Positions 16,376 through 55,271 of a stretch of DNA of 64,000 nt are shown here, piece after piece; positions within the stretch are counted from its first letter, which is position 1; every line of letters starts with the position of its first letter. Where the stretch lies: assembly GCA_958009085.1 (NCBI GenBank), contig OY253686.1:1-64000 (forward strand). Reading direction: 5' to 3'. Origin of the DNA: Protoeuglena noctilucae. Lineage: Eukaryota. The translations under genes and the position numbers were made by a program. The notes beneath the pieces were generated by a model. It ran no database searches, had not been told where the DNA came from, and saw only the letters and a program-made list of their open reading frames with translations.

Positions 16376-16503
16376 GTACCAGGGCGGTACCGACACAGTA
16401 CCCGCGGTACGCGGCCGCGGACCCGAAAACCGCGTACCGGGCGAGTTCCGCGCCCTGTTCCGGCCCTGTTCTGGCGTACTCGCGGAAAACCGGCTCCCGG
16501 TAC
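16376..16503. promoter_or_regulatory. Dense GTAC motif cluster (candidate SBP-box/CuRE-type sites or element-end repeats)
   Basis: GTAC at 16376, 16387, 16398, 16407, 16434, 16476 and 16500: seven in 128 bp. Function is inferred only. Confidence 0.4.
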
Positions 16504-16506
16504 CCG

Positions 16507-16657
16507 CCGAATCTCCCACCAGTGGATAGGGCGACCTTGGCGGCGCCCCCCATTTATCCGTTGTTAGCGCGGGGAGGCCGCGGCCCCACGGCCCGGGCCC
16601 TCGGGCCGCCGGTTGGACCCCCAGAATGGCCCTACCCCCCCGAATCTCCCACCAGTG
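16507..16657 (+). repeat. 18-bp perfect direct repeat CCGAATCTCCCACCAGTG
   Basis: Copies at 16507-16524 and 16640-16657, each with TACCC just upstream. Confidence 0.85.
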
Positions 16658-17306
16658 TTGTGCTGCATGCGTCAGAATTAGAGATCCCAGAATCGACAAT
16701 AAAGCCTCACTGCGCCCTTCTTTGAAACAATTGATTGCGACATCTTCGCACGCATCCAGAACAAGCCCCCCTTGCTAGCGAGGGCAGCTAGCCTCTTTCC
16801 TTGCCCCAGTGTTCTCGGCGACTGGGACTGACGGATCCTTCCGGAGCTTCAGGTCAGCAGAACCATTATTATATGTTTTACGGCGCCGCTCAAGCGCCGG
16901 CATGAGGCTTAGAAACGTAATATTCGCCGCGTCGCCGGTCAAAACACGCCGGCTTAGGGATGGTTGCCTTCCCTGCACGGGCCCATAAGGCTTCACGCGG
17001 ACCGCGTGAGCCGCATTATCGTGTGGCACATGACCGCGCGAAGGGACAGGGTGGGCGCGGAGCTCGCGGGGAAGGGAGCGTGGGGGCGTGACTGTTCGCG
17101 CCTCCTCTTCCCCCATCGCCGACCAGCAAACGCTTTCGCGGTCTATCCATCACCTGTTGCAGGACATGGTTTAGTCCAGAATCAGACTACTGCAGGCACC
17201 GAGACGGGCGCAAAGTCGCGACGCCACCCCAACTCTTTACGCCTCGTTGGCCACCATTTTCACGCAGGCCCCCCTCCGAGGAGGCCGGCTGCCGCAGTGG
17301 GGCACC

Positions 17307-20300
17307 ATGATGAGCCCCTGGCTCGCCGTCATCACGGTTTTGTGGGGACTGGTGGTATTACTCGTCCAGCAGTCCAAGTGGGCCGAGCAGAAGTCGAAAA
17401 GGGCCAAGTCCGCCCGAGGTAACGAAGACACATAGCGTGGGCGTAACGCATTTACCACGGTGCAAAACAGAAACGTGCTTGTTACATGTCATGAAATGAT
17501 GCCCGGTGCTTCCCACGCAGGCCGATATGAAATCTCCTCCCACGAGACCGTCTTGATGGTTAAGAAAATGAACGACTGGCTGAAGATCCCCAACAACGTC
17601 AAGAAGGGATACTGCATGGTCAAGCCCCCGTGGGTGGGGGTGGCCTCATGGAAGGCTGGCCGTCGTACCATCGGCGTGAGGCGTGGTGGACCAAGAGAAC
17701 CGAGCTTTGTTTCTCGCTGCTTCTGGGTGAGCGCTAGTGTTGGCATGTTCTCAACTTGCCACTTGCGCTGACGTCGGGTCCATCGGCGGGCGACAAGACA
17801 ACCCGTCCTCCTTGCCATCACAGACCATGGTGACGCCCGTCACAGCACTGTTCAAGATTCCGGCCATCTTATGGAAAGCATGCTCTCCCATCCCTGCTAA
17901 AATCGAGGACTGTCCGTCCAGCACCGGAGATGATGCCACACCGCATTGTGCACCCACGTCTTCCAATCTCGCCCCGGATGAGCTGGGGGACGCCCAGGTA
18001 AAACGTCGTGCGGGGCGGGAATATAATGATGACTCTCCTTAAACATGCTTTGCTTTTTTCTAATTCTCTTACTGCGTCCCTTAACGGCGTGCACCAACTG
18101 CGCCGCAGAGGACCAAGAACGTGTGGCAGCGTTTCCAGACATTCGGCAACCGACGCTTCAAATGCACGTCTGCGTGCTGGCAAAGGGTTGCAGCTGGCGG
18201 TGCGGCAGTGACGTGGGTATTAAGGCGAGTGCGCAGCGCAGAAAAAGTTTGGTTTACGTTCCATTTAAAATAATAAATTTATTACATGTTCAAAATAAGT
18301 AGGACGTGGTAAATAAGAGTGCATCTCTACATGGTGTTCTTGTCGGGAATGCCACACAATGGCAAATAGAAGTTGTTGTTGAGTGCATTTCAGGGTGGGG
18401 AAATTCACGTCTTCACGTCATACGTTGACGATTACCATAGTCACGGGACACAATTGATTAATTACAATGTACTTCATCACACCATTAAAAGCGTGACGCA
18501 CATGAGATCGTGGGCATCACGTCTTATATTACCAGGGTTATGGTAGGGCATGCATGTTCTATAGCTCTGGCATTTGGAGCCAAGAGCTCCACGCCTTTAT
18601 AGTAACTTCCACACCTAGACACGTAATAAAGTAGTTTTTAATTATAAGAACGACCAACAAATGCTTCTCTTCTTCTCACAGGGTCATGCAAGTCGGGACG
18701 GGAATTGACATCGCGCGATCTTCGGTTCAGAAACTAATTGACCGGTCATGCAGTTCAAGCGGAGGTCCTGGCGATGGCGGCAATGCGAATGCTCCCCAGA
18801 GAATCACCCTTCAGTTTGACCTCTACGTCGTGCATGGTGAGACTAGGGGTACGACTTTATGCCCCTACTCCGCCGAGACTTAGCGCCCTAATTGACTGCT
18901 TTCTGCACACAAGTCACAGTCCTGTATAACAAGACTATAACATCCTCGCCCACCGTTGTGACTGCAGAAAACCGGCGGATGAGGACGAGGCAATGCCACG
19001 TGTTAAACTTCCCTCGGCGAGTACATGTCAATGGCAAGACTTTCAGGAGGCGTGAGACTAAAGACCTCAATGGACCCCCGCGCTGTGGAGGCTGGGTGGA
19101 CTTTTTCTGTTCATGGATGCGAAAGACGCACGTGGACATTGACAAGAACTTCATCGATAACTCATATCTCCGCGACGAGGTCAAGGAGGCGGTCCACTTT
19201 TCGTTTGCTGTCGTTTACGTGGAGGAGCGCGTCTCTTCCAGGGCTCCTTCCCCCGTCACCACCATCACCCTCAACGTCGCGAACTTCATTCCGCCCCCAG
19301 CCAAGTCGGCTGCCACGTCGGCCAAGCTCACCATCGACAGCGCCACCGCTTGCAACTGTGCGGGCGGCGCCCCGTCCCCAGCCACGTCGGCCGCTCCGGC
19401 CGGGCTTGAAGCGCCGATTCCCACTGCATGTGAGGAGGCGCCGGGGGGAATGGGGTTGAGGGGAGGTACGCCCAATGTGGCGCATGCATCTACTCTGACG
19501 CTGGACAGCCAAAGGAGCCCTCCTCCACGGCGCAAGAGGAAGAATATGGGAAACACGTGCTATCGAAACGCGGTGTTCCAAGCTCTCGCTTCCTTCCACA
19601 TCTTTCTAAACGCACTTGAGCGAGCGGTAAATGGATCTTACGACGGATGCCTTAAAGCTAAGCTGAAGCAATTGATCGACGACCATGTGGGGGATGTTTT
19701 GGAACCAGACGACAGTGTTATTGTGGAGGGCACGGACTTCGATAATCCTGGAATGCACGACGCGCCCCAGTTCTTTGAGGCAGTGGTGAGTAGCCTACGA
19801 GTGCTGTTTCGGTATCCGGGACCTTGTATCCCGTATCCTTGTATTGTATCCTTGTATTTGCCCTAGCCCACGTATGCGCAGCAATATATCCACGACAGCC
19901 CATGCATCCTTCTCGCAGATTGAGAAGATCGATGACAAAAGCATCGCAGATTGCTTCAAAATATGGACTGTAACGACGTCTACCTGTCAATGCGGTCATG
20001 AGACCAGTCGTCGGGACGAATTGTGGGTGCAAAGGTGAGCTGCTTCTGGTTGTATTATTTACAATTATCCAATTTTTGGAGATGTGTTTAATGCAAGTAT
20101 AGTCTGCAGTCTTTACTTTGAAATAAAACCATAATATATATATTATTATGTGAGTTAAAGTCTTTCTAAAATGTAAATAATACTGTTATGGATTTTGTGG
20201 AATTCCTTAAGCCTTGAATGTGCTTGCAGGGTCCCACTTCTCGTGCTTGACACATCTATCGACTGGCATGAACTTCAAGATCTGGTCAGTGACAAGCACA

Positions 20301-23300
20301 CCGGCGGCACGGCAAGGAGATGCGTCAAGTGCGGCAACTTCGAAGAGCACACGGAGGTGGAGACATTTCACGCATCGGACGTACTGGCCCTGCAACTGCT
20401 GCGCTTCGAAAGTGAGTATGATAGTGTGGCTTGGAGGGTAAATAAAGAGCATATACCCCCCTGCATTTTACGCCTGCGTTTACGGCCACCATATGTCAGA
20501 ATATACTCCCCGGCACTTTTGCCACCGCAGTGGATGGTAACACGTCTCGGAAGAAGATGGATCGTGTGTCCCTTCCAGATATGCTGACCTTTTCAGGGGG
20601 CAATTACGTTCTCACGGCTGTTGTTCACCATTATGGAGATGGCACTGATACTGGGCACTTCGTGACGTCTTTCCGCGTGGAGGGGGACAGATGGGGATGC
20701 GCCGATGACGACAACGTCGGGTGGACAGACGAGCACAAAGTCAAGTCTCAGAGTGACTCTTGCTACCTTGTCTTCTACGTCAAGGAGTGCGACACAACGA
20801 ACCCTCCTAATCCCACCATCGTTCAGGCAAGAAGATATAATATTGCAGATTTCCGAGCGCTGATACTTGCCATGTGTGTCTTCATAGCAGTAACGCAAAA
20901 AAGTTTTTCAAAATAGAAAACTTTCATGCTATATTTATTATCAATTACAGCCATTTAGCTTGTGCAGACATCCTGACTTACATAATAGCCTATTGCTGTC
21001 CCCCAATAGTACCAATCCGTGTCCGTCAGATGCACGCATCTCACTTATGGCTTCTACGACATCTCCCAAGGATTGGGGCATTCCTCCCCCATCTTAACAA
21101 CTGTCCACAAGTGTTTGTATCAAAATATGTATTCATTTCTGCGCAACTCCGCACGCAGCCACGGTCCACCACGGCAAGGAGACATACTTGCTCCATGAGT
21201 GACAACAGTGACATGGAAATGAGCGAAGAGGTCCTCTGCCAAGGAGGAGGTGAGCAATTTGTGTAACCTACTATTTATGAGCGATTTAATAGTAGTAAAC
21301 AAACTTACAATTACTTTGTATTTTTCTTCATACATTTTGGTTGCTCAAACAACTTCTAGCAGCGGAAAATTCGATTTTCATCAGCTTTGCATAAACGAGT
21401 TTGTGACGTTATTTAAAACCTCCACGCAACATTTGCACACAACGACGTCATCCCACATACCACTTCCTGTCTCAAATACAAATACATGGTTACTGCCACA
21501 CCCGCAGTCAATGGGGACACCGACCGACAACCGGATGCTATAGCCGGTGAGAGGATGGGCCGGCAGGTGGAGACGTGGGACGCGGAGAACGTCGCGGGCA
21601 TGTGGGTGGCCACGAGCGCGGTTGCGGGAGCGGGACCGAATGTCTGAGCTTGAGAGTGGGTCGCAAGCGCGCCCGAAGCAGCACTGAGAGCGAGGCTGAC
21701 CCACAGCAATCACTGTCGGCGAGTCATGGGCGCGGTCATGGGCGTGGGCGTCGGACGGGCAACTTGGTGGACGTCAAGGGCCGCAAGTGTGGCCGCGAGT
21801 GTGGCGTGGACGGGTGCAAAGTGCGCCCCAGCTTTGGGATCAAGGGTCGCCCAGCCACGCGCTGCGCAAGGCACAAGACGGACGACATGGCGAGAGTCCG
21901 GAACCGCGAGTGTGGCGTGGACGGGTGCACAACGCAGCCCCGCTTTGGGATCAATGGTTGCCCAGCCACGCGCTGCGCAAGGCACAAGACGGACGACATG
22001 ATGGACGCCCGGAGCCGCAAGTGTGGCGTGGACGGGTGCACAACGCAGCCCAGCTTTGGGATCAAGGGTCGCCCAGCCACGCGCTGCGCAAGGCATAAGA
22101 CGGACGACATGGTGGACGCCCGGGGCCGCGAGTGTGGCGTGGACGGGTGCACAACGCAGCCCCACTTTGGGATCGAGGGTCACCCAGCCACGCGCTGCGC
22201 AAGGCACAAGACGGACGACATGGTGAACGTCTTGAGCTGCGAGTGTGGCGTGGACGGCTGCACAACGCACCCCAGCTTCGGGATCGAGGGTTGCCCAGCC
22301 ACGCGCTGCGCAAGGCACAAGACGGACGACATGGCGAACGTCCTGAGCCGCAAGTGTGGCGTGGACGGGTGCACAACGCAGCCCAGCTTTGGGATCAAGG
22401 GTTGCCCAGCCACGCGCTGCGCAAGGCACAAGACGGACGACATGGTGAACGTCCTGAGCCGCAAGTGTGGCGAGGACGGGTGCAAAGTGCGCCCCAGCTT
22501 TGGGCCTGAGGGTGGCCCGGCCACGCGCTGCGCAATGCACAAGACGGACGACATGGTGAACGTCCTGAGCCGCGAGTGTGGCGTGGACGGGTGCAAAGTG
22601 CGCCCCAGCTTTGGGCCTGAGGGTGGCCCGGCCACGCGCTGCGCAATGCACAAGACGGACGACATGGTGGACGTCCGGGGCGGCAAGTGTACCCACCCGA
22701 ACTGTGCAGCCAAGAAACCTTTGTGGGGAAAGCTGAGGAAAGACGGCAAGCCAGACCGTGGGAAACGGTATTGCAACGATCACTACGACTGGGAACCAGG
22801 TCTTATCAACTTGGCTGAACACATGCGGGACCGCGAGTGCCGCCGGCTCAGTGACCTAACGGACAGTGCGGCCGACGACCTGGATGCCCTACCCAAGGCA
22901 CACAAGGACGAGATCGTGGCAAAGATTGTGGCGTGGGTGCGTGAAGTGCTGCGGGTGCACAAGCACGCATCCATCTACATTTGCGTTTCGCACTGGTTTC
23001 GTATCATAGAAGAGATTGGGCGGACGCCATTCACGAACGGCTACTTTGTGGACGAGGGCGGCAACCCGCTCACCACCAAGGACCTGTCCCTTGCCAAGGC
23101 CATCAATGACCTTGGGGCCAAGCAGGAGGTGCTGGCGGTGACAGTCCGCCCCGAAGATGCCAATGACATCGAGAAGGCGGTGCACCAACAGCTCCACTAT
23201 GAGTTGACGCCTCGACTTTCTGCTGATGATCGTCCGGATGGGCACCGCCTTTGGCGCAAGGAGGGGACGGGTGGCACTCGGGTGCCGCGGCTCATCCCAC

Positions 23301-23845
23301 CGGAGGTCGCCCGCAGGTGTGTCAGATACGTAGTCGGGGCATTTGTCATCCCCGACGGGGACCCACCTAGCACGGCGTTTGCTCTCAGTGGAAAGGACAC
23401 TGACCTGCACGAGGCCGCTCAGAGGGCCAGGGCAAACCACTACCAACCCTTACAGCGCGTGGTGCACTTGCCCGTTCCCCCGCTCTCCTACCTGCCCGCT
23501 GGGATATCTCGGCAGATTGGTGGCGGGCGCGTGCTACCTGATACAGCCGCACACAGCAACAAGCTGCGCCAGCTCATGGTCAAGATCGGCACAGATGGGC
23601 TTCCGATGTACTTGCGGTTGCGCGCATTCGTCTCAGCCACGGGAACGGAGACCGAAAGGGATGATGTCGAGGAAGAGAGTGCCAACTCGGACGAGGACAT
23701 TGATTTGGAGGCAGCGCTTGAAGAACAGGACGATGCTGGCATGGACGAAGAGTCGGGGTCTGGTGCCGAGGACATGGACGAGTGGCACGACACGGAGGCG
23801 GGGCCGAGCAATGGGGAGGCAACCTCATGGGAGAAGCCCAATTGA
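17307..23845 (+). CDS. Multi-exon protein: hydrophobic N-terminus, MATH-like domain, USP (C19) deubiquitinase, EsV-1-7-type repeats, GIY-YIG-like domain, acidic tail
   Basis: Phase-consistent exons: 18682-18836, 18968-19785, 19919-20034, 20230-20411, 20531-20826 (GC donor), 21159-21249, 21508-21566, 21707-23845. Probable upstream exons: 17307-17418, 17521-17726, 17824-17997, about 18111-18199 (this junction is ambiguous). USP motifs: NMGNTCY, MHDAPQFF, LQLLRF, VVHHYG...GHF, W-x3-DDDNV, CYLVFY. Confidence 0.72.
21797..22684 (+). repeat. Coding tandem repeat, 8 x 111 bp (37 aa), EsV-1-7-type Cys/His repeat
   Basis: Units start at 21797, 21908, 22019, 22130, 22241, 22352, 22463 and 22574. Consensus CGVDGCxxxPSFGxxGxPATRCARHKTDDMVxV; a divergent ninth unit starts at 22685. 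Confidence 0.93.
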
Positions 23846-25911
23846 TGCTTCTCTGGTTAAGTTGTTACGGCGGCCAGCTCTCTTGCGTATGCTTATAGAG
23901 AACAAGTCTCAGATTGCTGGTATTCAGTGCCCGGTGTTAGCACCCTTGCACCCAACCATGCATGTTCGTGCTGTGCATGAAGTGCAGCACCTTGTCTGGG
24001 CAACAGTTGCTTGGCGTTGATCATGAGTGGTCCTCCACAGTTGAATGGATCCACTCAAAAATGTTCCACTCAGAAATGTAGAGAATATAGCTTCGAGACC
24101 ACAGGGGTTCAAATGCCAAAAGCCTAGCTAGGTGCACAATAAAACATTCTTGATGCACAGCGCCTTCTGTGCGACCTCCCTATCCCAAGGCCGCCCCCCA
24201 TTCCCCCCAAACATGCCGGCAAAGGCTGCGCGTTGCGACCGTTGCCGTGGTCATCCGCAAACACGTGGGCCCGAAGCGAGGGCAGCGGGTGACCAGACGC
24301 GCGGCGTGGATGGCAAAGGGGCCGCGCGCGTGCTCTCCGGGCGGGACGGACAGACGGGGCGAGCCCCGCCCCCACGCCGACGTGTGCCGGCAAGGTCGTG
24401 AAGGGGCCCATGGGTCCACCCCCCACCCCCACAGGGGCAGCTTCAAGCGGTCCCTCCCGCGGGGCCGGCGCGCTCCGGATGTGTGCCCGGAGGTCGCGGC
24501 GGGGCGCCCGGGTCGCGTGGCCGTGGGGGCCGTGGGGCGCCGGGAGCCGACTGTTGGCCCCGGCACCGCCCCGTGGGCGTCTGCGCATGCAAGCGGGCGG
24601 TATTTCGACGTCGGATCGATACACGGACCCCGCCCGGGCATGGCGTGGTCACGCACCCACTCGACCCCTCCTCGTCCCGGTGGGAAATCATGGAAAGGAC
24701 GCCTCGAGGCCGTGAATCGCCACCCCCCCCCCCTGCGCGCGATGCTATCGCACCTATGTGAATAGACCGATGATAATGGCAACGCATATCGTTCTCGGCG
24801 CGTGGTAGTGCAGCGCAAGCGAGCACGTTTATGACTTCAAGGACCGTGGATCGTCCGCCCGGTGAACAGCGCAGCGTGGCAGTCCCCGGGAAACAGACCA
24901 ACACCGAGAGCTGTGGGTCTCGTCCTCACCCGCCGCGATAAGCGACCGTCTTCGGTAGCGTGTCGTCGCACGCTCTCGCGGGAGCCGGCTACTCAACCCC
25001 CTTTCCCAGCACGTATGGAAAGGGTGACTATTCGCTCTTCCTGCCGCGTCGCACCGCCCGCCGGGCCCCGGGCCGCCAGTCGCCAGGGCCTAGCATGGGG
25101 CCGCCCCAGAACGGGGCAGCGAGGGAGACGGTGGGGCTCTCGTGGACCGGCGCCTACTCCTAGGGGTGTTGGCGGTAGGCGCTGAGACGTGCGGTGGGCG
25201 TCGTGCAGGAGCCACCTGCGCATGGGTGCCGGTGAAAGTATTCAAACAGCTTGCGATCAACACCAGCACTCGGCCTCTTGAGCCGGCACAAGCGGCATGA
25301 GCTAGGACTCCTTGCTCTTCACCCCATGCCTTGTCGGCTCGATAATCACGCCTCCTCGCAGCGTTGTCGACCAGCCTCTTGCACTCCTGCTCCATTTCGG
25401 CACCAGGTGCCCTCGTGTACGCATGGTCACTTCCCAGGGACTCCCACCAAGCTGCCGTTCCCGGGTGCGGTCGCATGAAGCAGCAAGAGGCACTCCAGTA
25501 ACCTGGCAGTCCAGCAGGTCCAAGATACTAGCCCCAGCGATGCTCAGCGCAGCCCGAGTGACCCCAACCAGCACTGTTAGACACACGCCAGTAGGGCGTA
25601 CCTGGGTAGCCCCTCGTCGCCCGCTGCGTGCCTGTGACGACGCCCACCGCGCTAGTGCTTGTGGTTGTACCGTCTACGTCCGATGACCTCGCTGCATGGG
25701 CCGGACTGCCGTTGCACAGCATGTATGAGCGTTAGTGCACTACGCAATCCCGGCCGCACATACTGTCAACTCGCTGTACCGCTACCAAAGGGGGCATCCA
25801 AGGCGCACTACATTGACATCAACAAAAGCAGCCGGTGTTCCACATTCGCAAGCGATGCTCTTGGTGCCATGACAATACATGACCCACTATCGGGTATTCA
25901 CCTGGGTGGAG

Positions 25912-39066: not shown

Positions 39067-39798
39067 CTCTCCCCCCGCGCGGTCAGGGCCGGAGGCCCCG
39101 ACGCTGCGGCCTGCGCCTTATCCCCAAGCAAGGGGTCAAAGAACGCGCACCGGAAGCCCGCCCGCCGAGCTCGCAGCGTCCTACCCGCGGCGCGGAATCC
39201 CGTTCTGCGCGCCTGCGTTCAAGGAAGGCGCCCGGGCGCGTGGGTTTGGGCGTCGCGTCACCAGCTGGAACCACGGGGTCAAAGAACGCTTTAGAATGGT
39301 TCCACTCTCGTTGTCAAGGGACGAGGAGAGATCGCGCGGGAGCTGCCTGTTGGCACATGCGAGGCCCGCTGTGGCGCCCCGTGCGACCGAGGCGCCGAGC
39401 GTACCGGCAGAAGCTGCGACGCGGCGATGAGGCTTAGATTGCGCACCATGGTGCCACTCACCCACCTGCGGGCGCTCTGCAGCCAGCGGTGTTTGCAGAA
39501 AAGGCTCACAGCTCCACGGCAGGCTTGCTGTCAGGACCAACGGAGCCCCCTTTGGTAAGCACATGTCTGGCTTCAGTGCAGGGGACGTCGTGGACTTGTG
39601 CGGGAGCAGCCTGGCATCGACACGCTCTGACATGCTGGGCAGGCTCCCCGCGCCGGTGTTTGAGGGATTCGGACACCGCACCGCATCCTCATATCTGTGA
39701 TGCGACCATCTCCATCCCATTAGCCCCATCCAGCCCGTATCCGCTCCCCCATTCCCGAGGGGCGGTGCAGCTCTCCGCGCTCGCTCGCATCCGCGATC

Positions 39799-41390
39799 AT
39801 GATCCAGGTGTTTGTGAAACATCTGGACGGAAAAACTTTGCCATACTCGATCCACGCGAGCGCTCGGGTGTCGGAGCTCAAGGACCGCGTCTTTTCGCGA
39901 TGCGGGATCGATCCCGACGAGCAGCGGCTTCGCCAAGGCGGGGTACGTGACGAAGTTGCTGCAATTGTGTCGATGGAGGCATGGCGGGGCCTCCCGCGTG
40001 CTGGATAGTGACGCTCCATCTCCATGGTTGCTTCCATGCCACGGCCGCAGAAAGAGCTGGACGGCTCGTGGAGCAGCCGTCTGGGCCCGCCGAGTGAATA
40101 TCAGCCGTCCGATCTGGTGACCGAGATGCACTTCAAGCGCGTCCACCGCTCCAGCGACAGCGCTGCACGGATCACGGACGAGACGCTGACCCTGCCCGGC
40201 AAGGCAACGGGCCTCACCGTCAGCGACCTCAAGCGCTGGGCCAGCTGCGTTTGGCAGACACGAGTCGTGGAGGCCACGGTGTCCGGGTGCGCGCTGAAGC
40301 CCGACCGGCCCCTCTCCACCCTGTGCATGCTGGATGCGGATGTGGTGCTGGTGACGGAGGGGTCGTGGGCCCCTGCGGACGCCCCGGCGCGGCGTCCGAC
40401 GCTGGAGGAGCTGGGCATCGGCAACGACGCCACCGTGCACCTGCTGCTGCGCCTGCGGGGGGGCGCGGGGTGGACGCTTCCTCCGCCGAATGGACCGCAG
40501 CGTTTCGTGGATGTGACGGACTCGAGGCTCCTGAAGCAGGCGAGAGAGCGTGAGGGATGCTTGTCTTGCTGAGATGTGCCAGGGTGCTGCAGAGACTGCT
40601 TATCGCCGTCCGCTCGCAGCGGCATTTCTCGTCGACTGCCCCCGCGTGGCGTCAAGTGACGCGGGGTCTCAACCTGGAGGGCATTTGCACCAACACCGCC
40701 TGCGAGGCTCGGAACCAGCTCGTGATCTGCCCCGTGGGAATGGGCGAGACGGAGATCGTCAGCTACCATGCGACCTGCCCGATGTGCGAGGAGAAGATTG
40801 TTGCCACCACCTGCGGCTTCAGCAGCTGCACCTTCGCATTCGAGGGCCTCAAGCAGGACGGCGAGTCTTGCTTTGGCAGCAGGCAGCACAGGCACACGTT
40901 GTACATGTCCGCCGCGCTGCTTCACCCCTCGCTGCCGTCGTGGCTGCAGGCCAGGCATTCCACCAGGTGACGGTTGCGCCCCAGGAGACCCGAACGGACA
41001 TGTACTCCATCTACGACCACCGCACGGAGGGCGGCATGGGCACGTGGGCCATGCTGTCGTCGCGCACGTGGGCGACGCCCCCCCGCAAGTGCCCCATCTG
41101 CCTGGTGACCATGAAGGGGCGCAGGCTCATCGGCGTCACGTCGTGCGGGCACGAGTACCACTTGACGTGCATCAACAAGGTGACTGCGACCGTGAGGGGG
41201 GGTGCCGGGTACCTGTGTGCAGGTCTGGATGTGACGGTGGCTGGGATGCGGTTGCGGAGCGTGCAGCACATGACGTGGCCCAGTCCCTGTTGCCCATCGA
41301 TCCCCGCAGTGGCTGACCCGGGCGCACCGCTGCCCCTTGGACCACGAGCCATGCACGGCCGCGCAGCTGACCCGGAAGAGGGCACAGTGA
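39799..41390 (+). CDS. Ubiquitin-like (with about 109-aa insert)-LRLRGG + Cys-rich domain + RING-H2 protein, copy 1 (394 aa)
   Basis: Exons 39799-39942, 40051-40539, 40620-40860, 40950-41179 and 41310-41390 splice in phase, with two GC donors. MIQVFVKHLDGKT..DEQRL..GKELD and TLEELGI..TVHLLLRLRGG align to ubiquitin. RING: CPIC..CGHEYHLTC..W..CPLD. Confidence 0.85.
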
Positions 41391-41970
41391 TGGCGCACCA
41401 CGCAAACAGCCACACAGAGAGCGCATGCGCGGTGGCAGGGACACGACTGCCGGGGCGAAGGACAGCGACAGAGGGGCAGAGGTGGGCAGGGGCGGAGCGT
41501 GCTGTGAGCGTGGGCACAGCTGTGAGGGGGCCGAGCGTGGCGCCTGCGTCTAGTCCGAGCCGCGGATTGAATGACTGCTCTCAGATGCGGCGCTGCAGCG
41601 AGTTTAAGCGGCCGGGCAAGAGGGCCAGGCAATGACACTCGTCGATACGCTCGGCAAGCTCGCGGCGCCGGCATTAGCGCTGAAGCCAACCACTGATGCC
41701 TGATATCCGTCATCGGTTGTAAGAAGGGTCAGCTTTCTCATGCGCGGAGGCTGGGCCGGATCGAGGCGGGCTGCACCAGCCAGACGCGTGACAACGTCCA
41801 TGCGCGGGCCGAGGCAGAGGCTTTCGAGGGATCCAACCACCCTGCCTCATTCTCACATCCGCGATGCGACCATCGCAACCTGCATTGTCCACATCCAGCC
41901 CGTATCCCCTCCCCCACTCCCGAGGGACGGTGCAGCTCTCCGCGCTCGCGCGCATCCACGGGCCGCGATC

Positions 41971-43567
41971 ATGATCCAGGTGTTTGTGAAACATCTGGAC
42001 GGAAAAACTTTGCCATACTCGATCCACGCGAGCGCTCGGGTGTCGGAGCTCAAGGACCGCGTCTTTTCGCGATGCGGGATCGATCCCGACGAGCAGCGGC
42101 TTCAGCGAAGCGGGGTAAGAGTTGCGTACATGCAGATGGAGGCATTGCGGGGTGGGCTGCGGGCTGGATAGCATCGCTCAATCCCCAGGGTCGCGTCCGT
42201 GCCGCGAGCGCAGAAGGAGCTGGATAACTCTTGGAGCAGCCGCCTGGGTCCGCCAAGTGAATATCAGCCGTCCGATCTGGTGGTTGAGGTGCTTGTTACG
42301 CGCGTACATCGTTCCAGCGGCAGCATCGTGCGGGTCACGAAGGAGACGCTTACCATGCCGGGCGAGGCTACGGGCCTTACCGCCGCTGACCTCCGCCGCT
42401 GGGCCAGCTGCGTTTGGCAGACGCGAGTCGTGGAGGCCACGGTGTCCGGGTGCGCGCTGAAGCCCGACCGGCCCCTCTCCACCCTGCGCATGCTGGATGC
42501 GGGTGTGGTGCTGGTGACGGAGGGGTCGTGGGCCCCTGCGGACGCCCCGGCGCGGCGTCCGACGCTGGAGGAGCTGGGCATCGGCAACGACGCCACCGTG
42601 CACCTGCTGCTGCGCCTGCGGGGGGGCGCGGGGTGGACGCTTCCTCCGCCGAATGGACCGCAGCGTTTCGTGGATGTGACGGACTCGAGGCTCCTGAAGC
42701 AGGCGAGAGAGCGTGAGAGATACTCATGTTTCAAAGATGCAGCAGGGTGCTCCGCAGACGGCTTGCCTCCTTCCCATCGCAGCAAAAGTTTTAATCTTCT
42801 GCCCCCGCCTGGCGTGTTGTTACGCCTGGTCTCAACCTGGAGGGCATTTGCAAAAACGATGAGTGTGAGGCATGGGACGAGCGCGTCATCTGCCCCGTGG
42901 GAATGGGCGAGACGGAGATCGTCAGCTATCACGCCCGCTGCCCCATGTGCCACGAGACGATCGAGGCCACCTCGTGTGGCTTCAGCAGCTGCACCTTCGC
43001 ATTCGAGGGCCTCAAGCAGAGCGGCAAGTTGCATAAACGTACCAGTAGCAGGAATGGAAACCTTCACGTCACATTCCTGTACCCCCTCATTGTGTCCTGT
43101 CGTGTCTTTGCTCCACGCAGGTAACGCCTTCCGCCAGGTGACCGTGGCGCCCAAGGAGACGCGTGAAGATCACTGCTCCATCTACGACCACAGCAGCAGA
43201 GGTGGCATGGGCACGTGGGCGATGCTGTCGTCGCGCACGTGGGCCACCCGCTCCCGCGAGTGCCCCATCTGCCTGGTGGCCATGGCCGGCACTGTCGCCG
43301 TCACGCCGTGCGGGCACAAGTATCACGACAACTGCATCCGCAAGGTGATCATAGTATTGCTATCAAAGGTGCCGGCATGCATGGGCGCAGGTCGGGGTCA
43401 GGGTCGGGGTGACGGAGGCTGCCGAGATGCAGAGCATATGAACACAGCATGTTGCTCAATCATGTGTCGCATGTCGCTCCCCGCAGTGGCTGGCGCGGGC
43501 GGCCCGCTGCCCTCTGGACAATGAGCCGTGCACCGTGGCTCAGCTGACCCGGAAGATCGCCCGGTGA
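41971..43567 (+). pseudogene. Copy 2 of the Ubl-Cys-rich-RING gene, with an in-frame TAA in exon 3
   Basis: Same five-exon layout (41971-42114, 42214-42702, 42783-43023, 43121-43344, 43487-43567). TAA at 42792-42794 stands where copy 1 has TCG (Ser). Confidence 0.72.
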
Positions 43568-44822
43568 CGGCGCATTCAGCAGACAACACACACAGTGGGC
43601 GCATGTGAGAGGTGGCAGAGACAGGACTGAAGAGGGCTGAGAGATGGGCAGGGGCGGAGCGTGCTGTGAGCGTGGGCACAGCTGTGAGGTGGCTGAGCGT
43701 GCTGTGAGCGTGGGCGCAGATATGTGGGCCAAGCGCGGCATGTTCTCTCCCCCATCCGAGCCGCGGATTGAACGATGGGTGCTTTCAGAAGCGACACTGC
43801 GCCGCCGCAGAGTGCAAGGGAGCCGGGCAGGCACAGCGGCCGAGGGGCGCAAAGGGGCATGCCCACACACGCGCATCGCAGGAACGCAGCATGGCAGAAG
43901 GTGCATGGCACTCAGCAGGGGGTCAGCGCGGGCTGTGTCATGTCCACGCGCGGCCCTGCGCGCTGCGAAGCGGCTATGCCACACTCTGGCACTCATGCGG
44001 GTGGCTGCGCATGCGTGCAAAGGAGAGTGGCCGACACGCTGTGCCTGCGTCATGCTCATCTCGTCGACACCCTTGCCGACATGTTCTTGGACAGTCGACC
44101 CCTGTCAGTTGTCATGATTCCTCCCTCACATGTCTGGGTCAGTGAAGGGCAGCAGGGGCGCGCCGGGTGCGGGTGCCGGGCGTGGACCGCGGGGGGAGGG
44201 CCCCGTCTGTGCATCTGCAGGCGGACGAATGGGGATGGATGGTAAATGAATGTGCTGTGAAAGGGGCGAGTGCGCTGCGAGAGTGCACGGCATGGAACGG
44301 TCATGTCACCGCGTGCACTACATAAATGGTAATGCACACACCATGCGCAACCTTCCCATCCCATCAACCTTCCCATCCCATCGCATCGCACGCCTGTCAT
44401 GTCACATGAGCATCTGCCCATGCTATCAACAACCTTACAATCCATGCCCCCCTCACGCACCGTGGCTGGGTGGCGCTGGGTAGGGGCCCCCCTGGGATCG
44501 GAAGAGGTGGCTGCCGGGCATGTTCTGCAGGATGCCCTTAGTAGCATCAGCCACAGAGCGGGACAGGGGGGGGCGGCCGTTGCCGGACGCGGGGAGACTG
44601 CGATTGGGGGGTGGGGAGTGAAGATGAGATGAATGGGGTGTTGGAATGGGGAATGCGGCATGCGTAGATGCTGGTACCGGACTAGTACCAGAGCAGTGGG
44701 TGAGGGGAGTGCGGTGCGAGTGAGCGACAAGTGAGCAATGCATGATCAATAAGCTAGCAGCAAGTCAGTCATAGCAGCGAGTGAACGACTCATGAGCAAC
44801 ACGCAACAGCGTCACTGTTCCC

Positions 44823-52345: not shown

Positions 52346-55070
52346 TCAGCACTCCTCCGAGAAAGCATAGAAGACCGGCACGCGGTCCACGGCGCCGACG
52401 CCGGCCGCGCCCGCCAGCGGGTGGCATCCGGCCGAGTCGATCGCAAGGAAGTCACCGACGCGCAGCTCGGGGAGCATCACGCCGCGCGCGACGACGTCCG
52501 GGCGATCGTAAGAAGGCCCGAAGACGTTGGAGGAGCGCTGCTTGGCGTCGGCGGGCAGCGGCTCGAGCGCCGGGTGGGGCAGGGGGCGGCACACGACGCC
52601 GTTCTTGCCCGCAGTCCCCTCTCCCGTCCCGTCCGACACCCAGTACTCGACGGGGGCGTCCTGGCGCGCGCGGCACCCCGAGACCTGGACCACGAGCGTC
52701 GTCACGTGCTGCGCCAGGAAGGCGCCGGGCTCTGCGTGGGCCGAGGGGGCAGTTGCGGTTGGGTCGAGGGTGCCATCGGGGTGTCATGCCGCAGCCGCCA
52801 CTGCATTCGGCATCCCGCACTCACCGGCGATGATCTCGTAGCCCCCATCGGCTGGGAAGTGCAGGTCGAGCGCTGCGTTGAGGGCGGCAGGGACACCCCC
52901 CGCGCTCATGCGGCCCGAGGGGTCCAGGGACAGGGAGAAGCCCCCGCCGATGTCGAGCACCGTCGGGCGCATGCCCCGGGCAGCGGCGTCGTCGAAGGCC
53001 CGGCGGGCGACGACCACCGCGTGCGCGAGGGCGTCCGCATGCATCGCGCCGTCGCCCACGTGCAGCGCCACGCCGGCCAGGGCGAGCCCTGACTCGGCGA
53101 CGGCGTCCAGCAAACCGGGGACGTCCCCCGGCGCTGCGCCCTGGGGCACGGCGCCCTCCTCAGCCGCCACGTCGATGCGCAGCAGCAGCCGGCAGCCGGG
53201 GTGGAGCTGGCGCAGCTTGGCAATCTCCCCGGCGCCGTCGAAGGCCACGAGGTCGACGCCGGTGTGGGCGAGGGCGCGGAGCTCGGCGGGGCGGCGCAGG
53301 GGGTGGGTGAGCACCAGCCGCGAGGCTGGGGCGCCGTGCAGGAGGGCGGCGTCGGCCTCGCGCCTTGAGCGGCAGGCGAACCCGGCCCCGAGGGCGGCGA
53401 GCGTGGCGAGGAGGCCCGGGTCGGCGTTGGCGCGGACGGCGTAGCGCGGGGCCACGCGGGGGAAGGCCTCGCGCCATGCGCGGAGGGCGCGAGCGGCACG
53501 GCCCAGGTCGTGGAGGCAGAAGGAGTCCTCCAGGGCCCTCTCGGGGAGCAGGCGCGACAGGAGGGCGTCGACAGCGGCGCGGGACCCGGAGGGCAGCGGC
53601 TCGGCACCCAGGGTGGCCAGCACACGCGCCAGGCCGGGGGCAGCGTCGGGGGTGCTGAGGCGGGCGGCGGCGTGGGTGAGGCGCGGGGAGGGCGGGGAGC
53701 CCTTGGGGGAGCCTGCGGGGGGAAGGGAGGGTAGGGGACGTGTGAGACAGCGACGTGAGACGGCCAGACGTGGGGGACGGATGAGCAGGCGAGATGCGTC
53801 AAGGTGACGTTAGGCAGGAGAGCATGTGAATGAGGCAACACCGTCGCCGCGCCCAGCCCTGCATCCGCGTCTCACCCGGGAGGTAGACGGGCGTGGCCGT
53901 GTCGCGGGAGGGCACCTCGGTGGGCGCGGGCACTCCGAGGTTGGTGTCGCGGATGAGGCGCTCGATGCCGCGGGGGGCCGCGGGGCAAGACCCGGCGAGG
54001 GCGGAGGGGTCCTCGAGGGCGAAGCGCAGGTAGGCGACGCGCCCGCCGCACCCGAGGGTCTGCAGGGAGACACCGTCGGGGCGGTAGCCGGGCGGGGCAG
54101 GGAACGTGAGCGGCAGCGCCTCCCAGGCGTCGGCGCCGTCCGCGTCCGTGGTGAGCGTGACGAAGAGGCTGCCCGGGAGGAACACCCCCGCGCACCCCGC
54201 CACCATGCCGGCCACGTCGAGGTCGGCCGGGTCCCAGTTGGATGCCTCGCAGCTGGCGTACGACGCCTGGGGCTCGGGGGTCACGTGGATGGTGCAGAAG
54301 CCGTCCTTCCAGAGCCCGTTCATGGAGTAGCCGCAGGGATCGAACACGTAATCGTCGATGTCGGCGTGGGGGAACAACGCACGCACGCCCGTCCGCTCGG
54401 TGCACTCCTTGGCGGACTCCCCGGGGAAGATGCGGCGGAAGCCGTCGGCCTGCGCGCGGCCCAGCTCCGTCATGCACACCTCCAAGGAGTAGCCGGGGCG
54501 GCGGGAGGCGGGCGAGGGGCTGCGCTCGCGGTCCGCCACGAACACGTGCCATTGCAGGCCGCGGCGGGCGTCCCCCAGCACGTAGGAGCGGGGCCCGTCG
54601 CCCAGGGACTCGAAGCGCGCGGTGAGGAAGGCGACCTCGGCGTCCCAGTCCTGGTACAGCGCCGGCTGCTGCTCCGGGAAGAGGAAGGACGCCCGGGAGT
54701 AGCGCACCCGGCGCAGGCGCAGGCCCAGGGCCTCGGCGGCGGCGGCGGCGGGGGCGGCGGCGGAGAGGAGCCGCGTGGTGCCGCACGTCTTGAGGACGAA
54801 CTTGTCCGCGTAGATGAAGAGGGAGGACTCGGAGAGCACGTACGCGTCGAAGGCGGCGCACGACCGCACCGACACGACCGTGCAGGCGGCCAGGTCCATG
54901 AGGGCGTCCACCTCGGAGCGCGGGAGGGCGCGCAGGCCGCGGGGGTCCGCGCCGGGGCCCATGTCGAAGTCGAGCTCCACCCGCTTCTCGCTGCCCTCGA
55001 ACAGCGGGGCGGGGAAGACGTCGTCCAGAGCGGGGACGAAGCCCTCCGCGGGAAAAGACGCCGCCATCAT
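52346..55070 (-). CDS. SAMDC: S-adenosylmethionine decarboxylase fused to a degenerate ornithine decarboxylase-like domain (822 aa)
   Basis: Exons 55070-53876, 53712-52825 and 52731-52346 join in phase with GT-AG. AdoMetDC motifs: FEGSEKR, LSESSLF, LKTCGTT, PCGYSMNG, TIHVTPE. ODC-fold motifs: YAVRAN, LHVG, LDIGGGF, IIAEPG, VFGPSYD. Confidence 0.92.
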
Positions 55071-55271
55071 GCTGAACGCGAGAGAAGACTGCGGGCGGCG
55101 GGAGTGCAAAAGGCGCTCGGGGCAGGGGAATTGAAAACGAAGCATGCGCAGCCGAATGCGAGCGCGTGTGCGCCCCACCTGCGCCTAGCTGGCGGGAGAA
55201 CCGGGCAGAGAGTCCGGCTCAAGATAAATGTTGTGGGAATTTGCTTGTCGATCTACAACCCCGTGGGGATG

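Follow-up and report, generated by a model that had tools for sequence, protein, structure and literature searches.

Does the only AT-rich segment of a GC-rich chromosome encode one deubiquitinase that is targeted by a repeat array, or two neighbouring genes? The locus that raises this question lies at 17307-23845 of a 64,000-nucleotide stretch of Protoeuglena noctilucae DNA (contig OY253686.1, positions 1 to 64,000; hereafter the window), where exons of a ubiquitin-specific protease (USP) are followed on the same strand by a large exon with EsV-1-7 repeats. The original prediction treated the locus as a single spliced gene for a USP7-like enzyme with a MATH-like region, retargeted by viral-type repeats in a foreign island and possibly belonging to a mobile element. 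Its USP domain, EsV-1-7 repeats and compositional island stand; its MATH domain is unproven, its USP7 likeness and mobile element lack support, and its fusion is somewhat less probable than two separate genes. We propose, with a confidence that is about evenly balanced, that the island holds two adjacent co-oriented genes, a USP gene and a repeat gene.

The window belongs to a GC-rich eukaryotic chromosome, as its 2-kb windows have a GC content of 0.60-0.74. The island between the peptidase S41 and anoctamin genes has a mean GC content of 0.553 versus 0.676 outside it (standard deviation 0.058), and 18 of the 19 200-nucleotide windows with a GC content below 0.5 in the whole 64 kb fall at 18101-24200. 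This segment of approximately 7.7 kb is the sole AT-rich place of the window. The contrast extends to the GC content at third codon positions (GC3), which is 0.83-0.97 in four host housekeeping genes, 0.53-0.67 in the USP exons, 0.71 in the conserved C-terminal domain of the repeat gene (CTD) and 0.83 in the repeats, and the USP introns are far richer in AT than anything else in the window. The island is thus as distinct as had been proposed, and the composition of both genes is foreign to the host, most of all that of the USP gene with its many introns. Three public runs with the same organism label and an unrecorded library type contain contigs identical to 16459-21821 and 22640-24399, and the junctions of the island with both GC-rich flanks are thus reproduced independently of the window assembly. 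In run X2, the island contigs have a depth of 76-100, comparable with the 121 that the two alternative flank contigs reach together.

What does the upstream gene encode? Pfam UCH (PF00443) matches two pieces of a USP catalytic core, namely the Cys box in the open reading frame (ORF) 18892-19866 (profile 4-69 versus residues 217-272, E 2.4e-4, 21.3 bits, just below the gathering cut-off of 23.9 bits) and the His box in the ORF 20446-20916 (profile 172-254 of 254, E 1.4e-8, 35.1 bits, above the cut-off). A phmmer search of the PDB with exon 20533-20826 returned eight sequences, all of them USPs (USP15 best at E 3e-4, with an alignment that spans GHF...W..DDD.V...YLVFY; USP11; USP14 five times; and USP18), and the Cys-box exon gave a weak USP21 match (E 0.28) in which NMGNTCYRNAVFQAL is aligned. 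The full catalytic triad of the original prediction is present, with TGC at 19558-60 for Cys, CAC at 20656-58 for His and GAT GAC GAC at 20704-12 for Asp. The fingers zinc ribbon CxxC...CxxC is a feature of many USPs, and it is intact here, on the two exons that separate the Cys box from the His box (CQC at 19985 and CVKC at 20321). Since none of these catalytic and ribbon elements is disrupted, the gene product should cleave ubiquitin from its substrates, with a predicted Cys-His-Asp thiol-protease mechanism. No relative of the 281-residue Cys-box piece was found among proteins of 493-2000 residues, and no viral relative of the last USP exon was found in the viral scan; judged from its sequence, the enzyme is a very divergent USP. 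In the two-gene reading, its gene would have about ten exons; it would begin near 17307 or farther downstream and extend a little past 20826.

The USP gene might alternatively be a decaying, non-functional relic beside a repeat gene that alone works. Such decay would fit the lack of a relative of the USP piece among longer proteins, the Cys-box score below the Pfam cut-off and an N-terminal exon chain that cannot be built from strong splice sites alone. However, the four catalytic exons (18920-20826) join in frame with no stop through canonical GTGAG...CAG introns of 119-195 nucleotides and a GC content of 0.29-0.51, and Cys, His, Asp and the four ribbon cysteines are kept, which makes a relic improbable.

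Is this USP an enzyme of the USP7 type? USP7 (HAUSP) and plant UBP12 and UBP13 have a MATH-USP-UBL domain order, in which a C-terminal ubiquitin-like (UBL) region, also called HUBL, follows the catalytic core. The window enzyme resembles them in that a non-catalytic N-terminal region precedes a USP (peptidase C19) core equipped with the Cys and His boxes, the zinc ribbon and Asp. Unlike USP7 and UBP12, it shows no MATH profile or PDB match in any single exon searched, and Pfam assigns 20446-20916 to UCH alone and 21551-23842 to EsV_1_7_cys alone, with no C-terminal UBL region; what comes after the catalytic domain is either a stop or the linker and the repeats. The closest solved sequences of the His-box exon are those of USP15, USP11 and USP14, not USP7. 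The proposed USP7 likeness is therefore limited to the USP core.

The MATH-like motifs GCSWR/V, ITLQFDLYVV, GGWVDFF and NSYLRDE exist in the sequence, and the exons 18109/18139-18199, 18682-18836 and 18920-19785 join in frame. The searches for MATH covered single-exon translations of a region that is split over at least three exons: Pfam gave no MATH match for five candidate N-terminal exon translations at E<=10, phmmer searches of the PDB with three single pieces (E<=1 and E<=10) returned no MATH, TRAF, SPOP or USP7 chain, and an Atlas search of the MATH-like region returned nothing. Of the earlier claim, the motifs and the in-frame joins survive, and MATH is an unproven resemblance by eye. 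Further upstream, the exon with ATG 17307 encodes a 20-residue hydrophobic N-terminus and joins 17521-17726 and the exon that starts at 17824 via good sites. The strong donor 17998 of the latter exon is out of frame with exon c (Table 1); from ATG 17307 to exon c, no chain can be built with strong sites alone and 358 in-frame chains exist under relaxed splice-site thresholds. We infer that exon 17307-17418 is part of the USP gene, whose product would then begin with a hydrophobic, possibly membrane-anchoring N-terminus followed by a region that no search assigned, ahead of the catalytic core.

The downstream ORF (21551-23845, 764 codons) carries the repeat array. Pfam EsV_1_7_cys (PF19114) matches eight stretches (E 2e-87, 287.2 bits versus a cut-off of 25), Tandem Repeats Finder reports 8.1 copies of a 111-nucleotide period with 91% matches at 21792-22690, and the pattern C-x4-C-x15-C-x2-H fits all eight units. 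The original description of eight near-identical repeats is thus borne out, and so is the CTGAC ahead of the acceptor at 21707. The units form two subtypes that differ as a block, KVR (units 1, 7 and 8) and TTQ (units 2-6). Across the eight units, 20 of the 37 codon positions are variable and 16 of these 20 alter the amino acid; the variable positions are concentrated in the linker and in the loop that separates Cys 2 from Cys 3, and C, C, C and H are invariant in 8/8. Diversifying selection on the array is not claimed, because the 16:4 ratio is about what unselected mutation gives. The approximately 300 residues downstream of the repeats constitute a conserved, unannotated domain. In the repeat frame, positions 21659-21676, within the proposed intron 21567-21706, encode GRKRAR, which resembles a nuclear localization signal (NLS), followed by SSTESE.

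The repeat ORF has no in-frame ATG ahead of its first repeat and therefore must borrow upstream exons. Two models with an own start are open, one from ATG 21195 (750 residues) and one from ATG 21486 (739 residues), and in the two-gene reading a small upstream exon with one of these codons would be spliced to 21707-23845. The product would consist of eight EsV-1-7 Cys3His modules, which presumably bind zinc, a variant module, an alpha/beta CTD of approximately 200 residues and an acidic tail. We infer that it acts as a nuclear adaptor or regulator, in which the array would bind a macromolecule, either DNA or protein, on which the CTD and the acidic tail would act.

Does this arrangement of domains occur elsewhere on its own? 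On sequence grounds, an EsV-1-7 array, a variant repeat, the CTD and an acidic tail define a small unnamed family, which is new and is the most solid new result of this analysis. A HMMER scan of 1.84 billion representative proteins with the CTD (E<=0.001) returned seven proteins: the window's own, five relatives (P0005-P0009; 50% identity and E 1e-76 for P0005, 35% identity for P0006) and a 1,233-residue repeat protein that is regarded as spurious (35 bits, eight short stretches). A word-indexed search returned only the window's own ORF calls (P0001-P0004), which are prokaryote-style predictions with the array collapsed in two of them. The cluster mates P0013 (617 residues with an own N-terminal Met) and P0015 (593 residues) carry PF19114 repeats followed by the CTD and an acidic tail, 6 of the 12 rows of the family alignment (A3), whose row 1 is the window's own CTD core, match PF19114, and CTD identity across the family is 28-57%. 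A metagenome scan yielded four loci with family members (L001-L004), all GC-rich at 0.65-0.71.

Like the window protein, the relatives (P0005-P0009, P0011-P0017 and L001-L004) carry a variant terminal repeat as well as the CTD and an acidic tail. They differ from it in that they begin at start codons of their own and have 0-6 repeats of greater divergence, whereas the window array has eight near-identical units. No USP lies upstream of the relatives, of which only L003 has more than 1 kb of upstream sequence. The L003 relative has its own Met in the ORF, about six divergent repeats and a host-like GC3 of 0.92, versus 0.71-0.83 in the repeat gene of the window, and the gene whose 3' end is found approximately 1 kb upstream of it is a second family member rather than a USP. 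Two CTD-family members are thus arranged in tandem on this metagenome contig (1-270 and 1313-2734).

The CTD matched nothing in Pfam (including the 12 rows of A3 at E<=10), PHROGs, PADLOC, PDB profile and sequence searches or Atlas. A first AlphaFold model was poor, with a predicted local distance difference test score (pLDDT) of 49.9, and a second, based on the 12-row alignment, was of moderate quality and predicts an alpha/beta fold (pLDDT 64.9, predicted TM-score 0.64). A Foldseek search of the PDB with the CTD model gave a best E of 1.2. VIA-align listed cyclic-dinucleotide-binding domains of STING in 14 of 50 rows at Z 3.0-4.3, none at Z>=5, for the model of pLDDT 64.9. The BFVD matches were weak, at E 0.012 and TM 0.36 for an uncharacterised protein of Klosneuvirus and at E 0.13 and TM 0.33 for a GIY-YIG protein of Yasminevirus, and the GIY-YIG family is absent from the Pfam matches of the 12 A3 rows at E<=10. 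The STING-like and GIY-YIG-like folds suggested by these models are weak leads only.

Are the USP exons and the repeat exon nevertheless spliced into one transcript? In a true fusion, the USP exons would continue via 21159-21249 and 21508-21566 into the repeat exon and yield a deubiquitinase of at least 1,313 residues that is targeted by the array and the CTD. We regard this as a serious possibility, at somewhat below an even chance. The chain 20826/21159-21249/21508-21566/21707 is in frame and stop-free, with 1,313 residues from ATG 18162, and variant fused chains of 1,334-1,356 residues are also open. Several further observations weigh against two separate genes. Exon 21159-21249 resembles an internal exon that links its neighbours, as its acceptor is good and no GT donor in the region is stronger than its own, and the acceptors 21159 and 21508 and the donor 21250 match the consensus of the confident introns. 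The two linking exons have a USP-like GC3 of 0.60-0.63, and the spacers 20827-21158 and 21250-21507 are AT-rich, as the USP introns are. The repeat ORF lacks an ATG of its own, and the upstream exons that fit it best are also in frame with the USP. The 29-codon read-through tail past 20826 is AT-rich and intron-like by our own count, so the GC donor at 20827 may truly be used. Finally, relatives that stand alone are compatible with a fusion derived in this lineage.

However, although the original claim of in-frame splicing from 20826 to 21707 is correct for the frame and the absence of stops, the chain is not unique. One frame is open across 20841-21263, so several in-frame chains exist; at least four variants join the USP to the repeats, with 20827 or 20890 as the donor, 21030 or 21159 as the acceptor, and a further acceptor at 21567, and exon 21159-21249 also joins the repeat frame directly at acceptor 21567 (open, 1,340 residues). 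Given these many alternatives, frame agreement is weak evidence for fusion. The fused chain moreover requires a GC donor (CAG/GCAAGA, 20827) and a weak GT donor (CAG/GTGGAG, 21567), and its last intron has the composition of an exon (Table 1). The USP can also end by itself, at TAG 20914 (580 residues) or TAA 21264 (586 residues). The relatives of the repeat protein stand alone, no fused homologue was found, and no protein that joins the CTD to anything else was found at 420-1337 and 1338-3820 residues in a set of 5.8 billion. A hydrophobic N-terminal anchor and an array of nuclear type with an NLS-like motif would also make an odd pairing in one chain.

RNA evidence at the junction consists of a single contig from run X1, a marine metatranscriptome that was picked by repeat words, holds a tenth of the sampled words and is patchy at a depth of about 3. 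This 335-nucleotide contig is identical to 21423-21757 without a gap; it covers the last part of the proposed intron 21250-21507 and continues across the small exon and all of the proposed intron 21567-21706. Its unspliced state speaks against the fusion, but the contig settles nothing on this point because the two-gene model also needs intron 21567-21706; it is probably pre-mRNA or DNA carry-over. X1 has no contig on 17301-21305 or 22908-24242, gaps that carry no inference given the patchy cover, and no splice joint was found in any contig of the four runs mapped, three of which have no recorded library type. With an unspliced RNA-library contig, stand-alone relatives and no fused protein, the earlier notion of one USP enzyme retargeted by the array is not shown, and two adjacent genes are the reading that we prefer.

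Both spacers at the junction are nearly stop-free in one frame (106 of 110 codons in 20827-21158 and 86 of 86 in 21250-21507). This openness is reached by only 31/2000 and 29/2000 dinucleotide-preserving shuffles, as against 1276/2000 and 1087/2000 for the two longest USP introns, and the GC3 of the open frame is 0.44, which is not coding-like. A single coding exon at 21030-21249 from ATG 21030 was rejected on its GC3 of 0.44 in the correct register, and the donor 21547 (GTGAGA), followed by hand, has no in-frame acceptor into the repeat frame.

Where did the island come from? EsV-1-7 repeats are known from the brown alga Ectocarpus, in IMM, and from gene 7 of the virus EsV-1. The array of the window resembles this family (PF19114) in its tandem Cys-rich motifs, eight stretches here, and differs from the Ectocarpus proteins in that a conserved non-repeat domain and an acidic tail come after eight units of 91% identity; the host genome, moreover, is GC-rich and does not resemble that of a brown alga. 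One paper describes IMM as having its own N-terminal domain and five repeats, and EsV-1-7 proteins as much expanded in brown algae, scarce in most stramenopiles and missing from animals and land plants (10.1101/2024.02.19.579948). Other texts report no Ectocarpus EsV-1-7 gene with another Pfam domain (10.64898/2026.04.27.720984), interpret the motifs that the Ectocarpus IMM gene shares with the EsV-1-7 gene of EsV-1 as potential viral gene co-option (PMC12993054) and view the domain as virus-associated (10.64898/2026.04.27.720984, PMC12993054). A literature search with the EsV-1-7 name plus ubiquitin and with Pfam and InterPro accessions found no paper on a link to USPs.

The island might accordingly be an integrated fragment of a giant virus (Nucleocytoviricota) with both genes as viral cargo. 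The low GC content of the island for this host and the published virus association would agree with this origin, and a scan of IMG/VR with the array pattern found four giant-virus contigs (L005-L008), all of which encode arrays with six Pfam stretches and a common HKTDDM motif. Their proteins have 438-443 residues, with six EsV-1-7 units that include the linker motif HKTDDM(V/M)D, followed by an unannotated C-terminal domain, and the linker motif and a non-repeat C-terminal domain after the array are also found in the window protein. However, the viral arrays are only 29-30% identical to that of the window and lie on intron-free DNA with a GC content of 0.33-0.38, and the viral C-terminal domain is unrelated to the CTD (hhalign probability 0.1). 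The USP gene has about nine introns of the spliceosomal type, the viral scans returned no relative of the CTD or of the USP exon, and none of the 48 long ORFs scanned with Pfam in the flanks of the island is a viral hallmark gene. All 11 of the 48 that matched a family are ordinary cellular genes, including the DNA polymerase B at 0.5-10 kb, which is of the polymerase epsilon type with a zf-DPOE finger and is not a viral hallmark. A viral origin is thus very unlikely.

The giant-virus C-terminal domain is of interest in itself. All four contigs have this domain of approximately 180 residues in common (within L005 4923-6254 and L006 4959-6275, for example), with a stretch ...RRPDLLLDLGYQVIIIE(I/V)DENQH..., which by eye recalls PD-(D/E)xK nucleases; Pfam, PHROGs and PDB phmmer searches gave no match.

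A mobile element is not indicated either, as the Pfam scans of the island and its flanks yielded no transposase, no integrase and no reverse transcriptase, no inverted or direct repeats were found to bracket it, and no tRNA or Rfam family was found within it. None of the observations speaks to the suggested roles in anti-silencing, anti-defence or immune sensing. The repeats, too, appear from these comparisons not to be specifically viral-type, contrary to the earlier label, given that the array also occurs in a cellular family and would be a portable module on different C-terminal domains in viruses and cells. In the two-gene reading, both genes may instead have been acquired from a less GC-rich, eukaryote-like source rather than from a known virus or transposon. 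The composition of the island suggests a fairly recent acquisition of an intron-bearing gene from such a donor, and fits a landing beside, or together with, a repeat gene of a family that is at home in GC-rich genomes. The AT-rich, intron-rich USP gene amid GC-rich housekeeping genes is a clean candidate for gene transfer between eukaryotes.

What would follow from either outcome? EsV-1-7 proteins form a large family without a known biochemical role that is linked to brown-algal development and giant viruses. Outside brown algae, the repeats are part of the small family whose proteins also have a conserved domain and an acidic tail, and giant viruses join the same kind of array to a different domain, which points to the array as a portable targeting module. 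There is a substantial chance, although we lean against it, that the USP is spliced onto the array. It would then be the first EsV-1-7 protein with a catalytic domain, and it would have arisen through the arrival of a foreign, intron-rich USP gene ahead of a resident repeat gene, which it captured. In such a fusion, a fast-evolving array with eight zinc modules, together with a domain of unknown fold, would direct a deubiquitinase to its targets. The array would thereby be coupled to an enzymatic activity that can be measured, and the locus would provide a natural test of the array's binding target.

Table 1. Features of the locus and its neighbours in window coordinates (a slash marks a splice site)
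Feature	Position	Strand	Details
Candidate first exon	17307-17418	+	ATG 17307; hydrophobic N-terminus (MMSPWLAVITVLWGLVVLLV...); donor GAG/GTAACG; in frame with 17521
Candidate exon 2	17521-17726	+	GRYEISSHETVLMVKKMNDW...; donor TGG/GTGAGC; no family match
Candidate exon 3	17824-17997	+	strong acceptor; 3' end ambiguous
Exon c	18109-18199	+	..HVCVLAKGCSWR, MATH-like part; acceptor 18109 or 18139; donor GCG/GTGCGG
Exon d	18682-18836	+	VMQVGTG...QRITLQFDLYVVH, MATH-like part; no Pfam match at E<=10
USP exon e/U1	18920-19785	+	end of MATH-like region (GGWVDFF, NSYLRDE); Ala/Pro/Ser-rich linker; USP Cys box (GNTCY)
USP exon U2	19919-20034	+	first CxxC of zinc ribbon
USP exon U3	20230-20411	+	second CxxC (CVKC)
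USP exon U4	20531-20826	+	His box; Asp; end of catalytic domain (YLVFYVKE)
Intron start or read-through tail	20827-20916	+	GC donor GCAAGA 20827, alternative GT donor 20890; or 29-codon tail to TAG 20914-16
Candidate linking exon	21159-21249	+	acceptor CGCACGCAG/; donor GAG/GTGAGC; contains ATG 21195; read-through to TAA 21264-66
Candidate exon	21486-21566	+	21508-21566 after acceptor CACCCGCAG/, or first exon with ATG 21486 (aaatacATGg)
Proposed last intron	21567-21706 (140 nucleotides)	+	GC 0.68, exon-like (other introns 0.29-0.58); open in repeat frame
EsV-1-7 repeat protein, single large exon	21707-23845	+	stop TGA 23843-45
Eight 37-residue EsV-1-7 units	21791-22678	+	C-x4-C-x15-C-x2-H fits 8/8
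Ninth, variant repeat	22688-22783	+	C-x4-C-x20-C-x2-H; kept in closest relative P0005
CTD core	22883-23467	+	conserved C-terminal domain, predicted alpha/beta
Acidic tail	23651-23842	+	D/E at 26 of 64 residues; acidic tail in relatives too
AATAAA	24138-24143	+	293 nucleotides past stop codon
Compositional island	~16500-24200 (~7.7 kb)		between S41 and anoctamin genes; GC profile
DNA polymerase epsilon	0.5-10.3 kb	-	DNA_pol_B_exo1 E 9e-42 and zf-DPOE finger
Cytochrome P450	about 12-13 kb		Pfam
Peptidase S41	about 15 kb	-	Pfam; left neighbour of island
Anoctamin with ankyrin repeats	26.5-30.7 kb	-	Pfam; right neighbour of island
Two RING proteins	40-43.5 kb		Pfam
S-adenosylmethionine decarboxylase and ornithine decarboxylase ORFs, adjacent	52.8-55.2 kb		Pfam

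The edges of the island show features of their own. At the left edge, where the GC content drops, an exact 18-nucleotide direct repeat (CCGAATCTCCCACCAGTG) is present at 16507-16524 and 16640-16657 with a spacing of 133 nucleotides; two matches occurred in 0/100 shuffles, and the public-run contig that covers the island starts nearby, at about 16459. At the right edge (24309-24450), contigs branch in three runs, as would be expected from either a dispersed repeat or an allelic bubble. A 7.3-kb contig has only 24309-24399 in common with the window (6 mismatches), and two alternative contigs begin at 24372. The contigs that diverge at 24309 and 24450 were considered as an island-free allele, which was rejected because their loose ends occur nowhere in the window and their depths are inconsistent across runs; they more probably reflect a local bubble or a dispersed repeat.

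Farther along the chromosome, the RING-finger ORFs 40535-41635 and 42172-43524 are spanned by a tandem duplication at 39718-43739 with a period of approximately 2.17 kb and segments that are 77-97% identical. On the minus strand at 52784-55184, the ORFs for S-adenosylmethionine decarboxylase (E 4e-83) and the N-terminal domain of ornithine decarboxylase (E 6e-42) abut. A fusion of these two enzymes occurs in Plasmodium, and the two ORFs of the window may likewise constitute one bifunctional gene.

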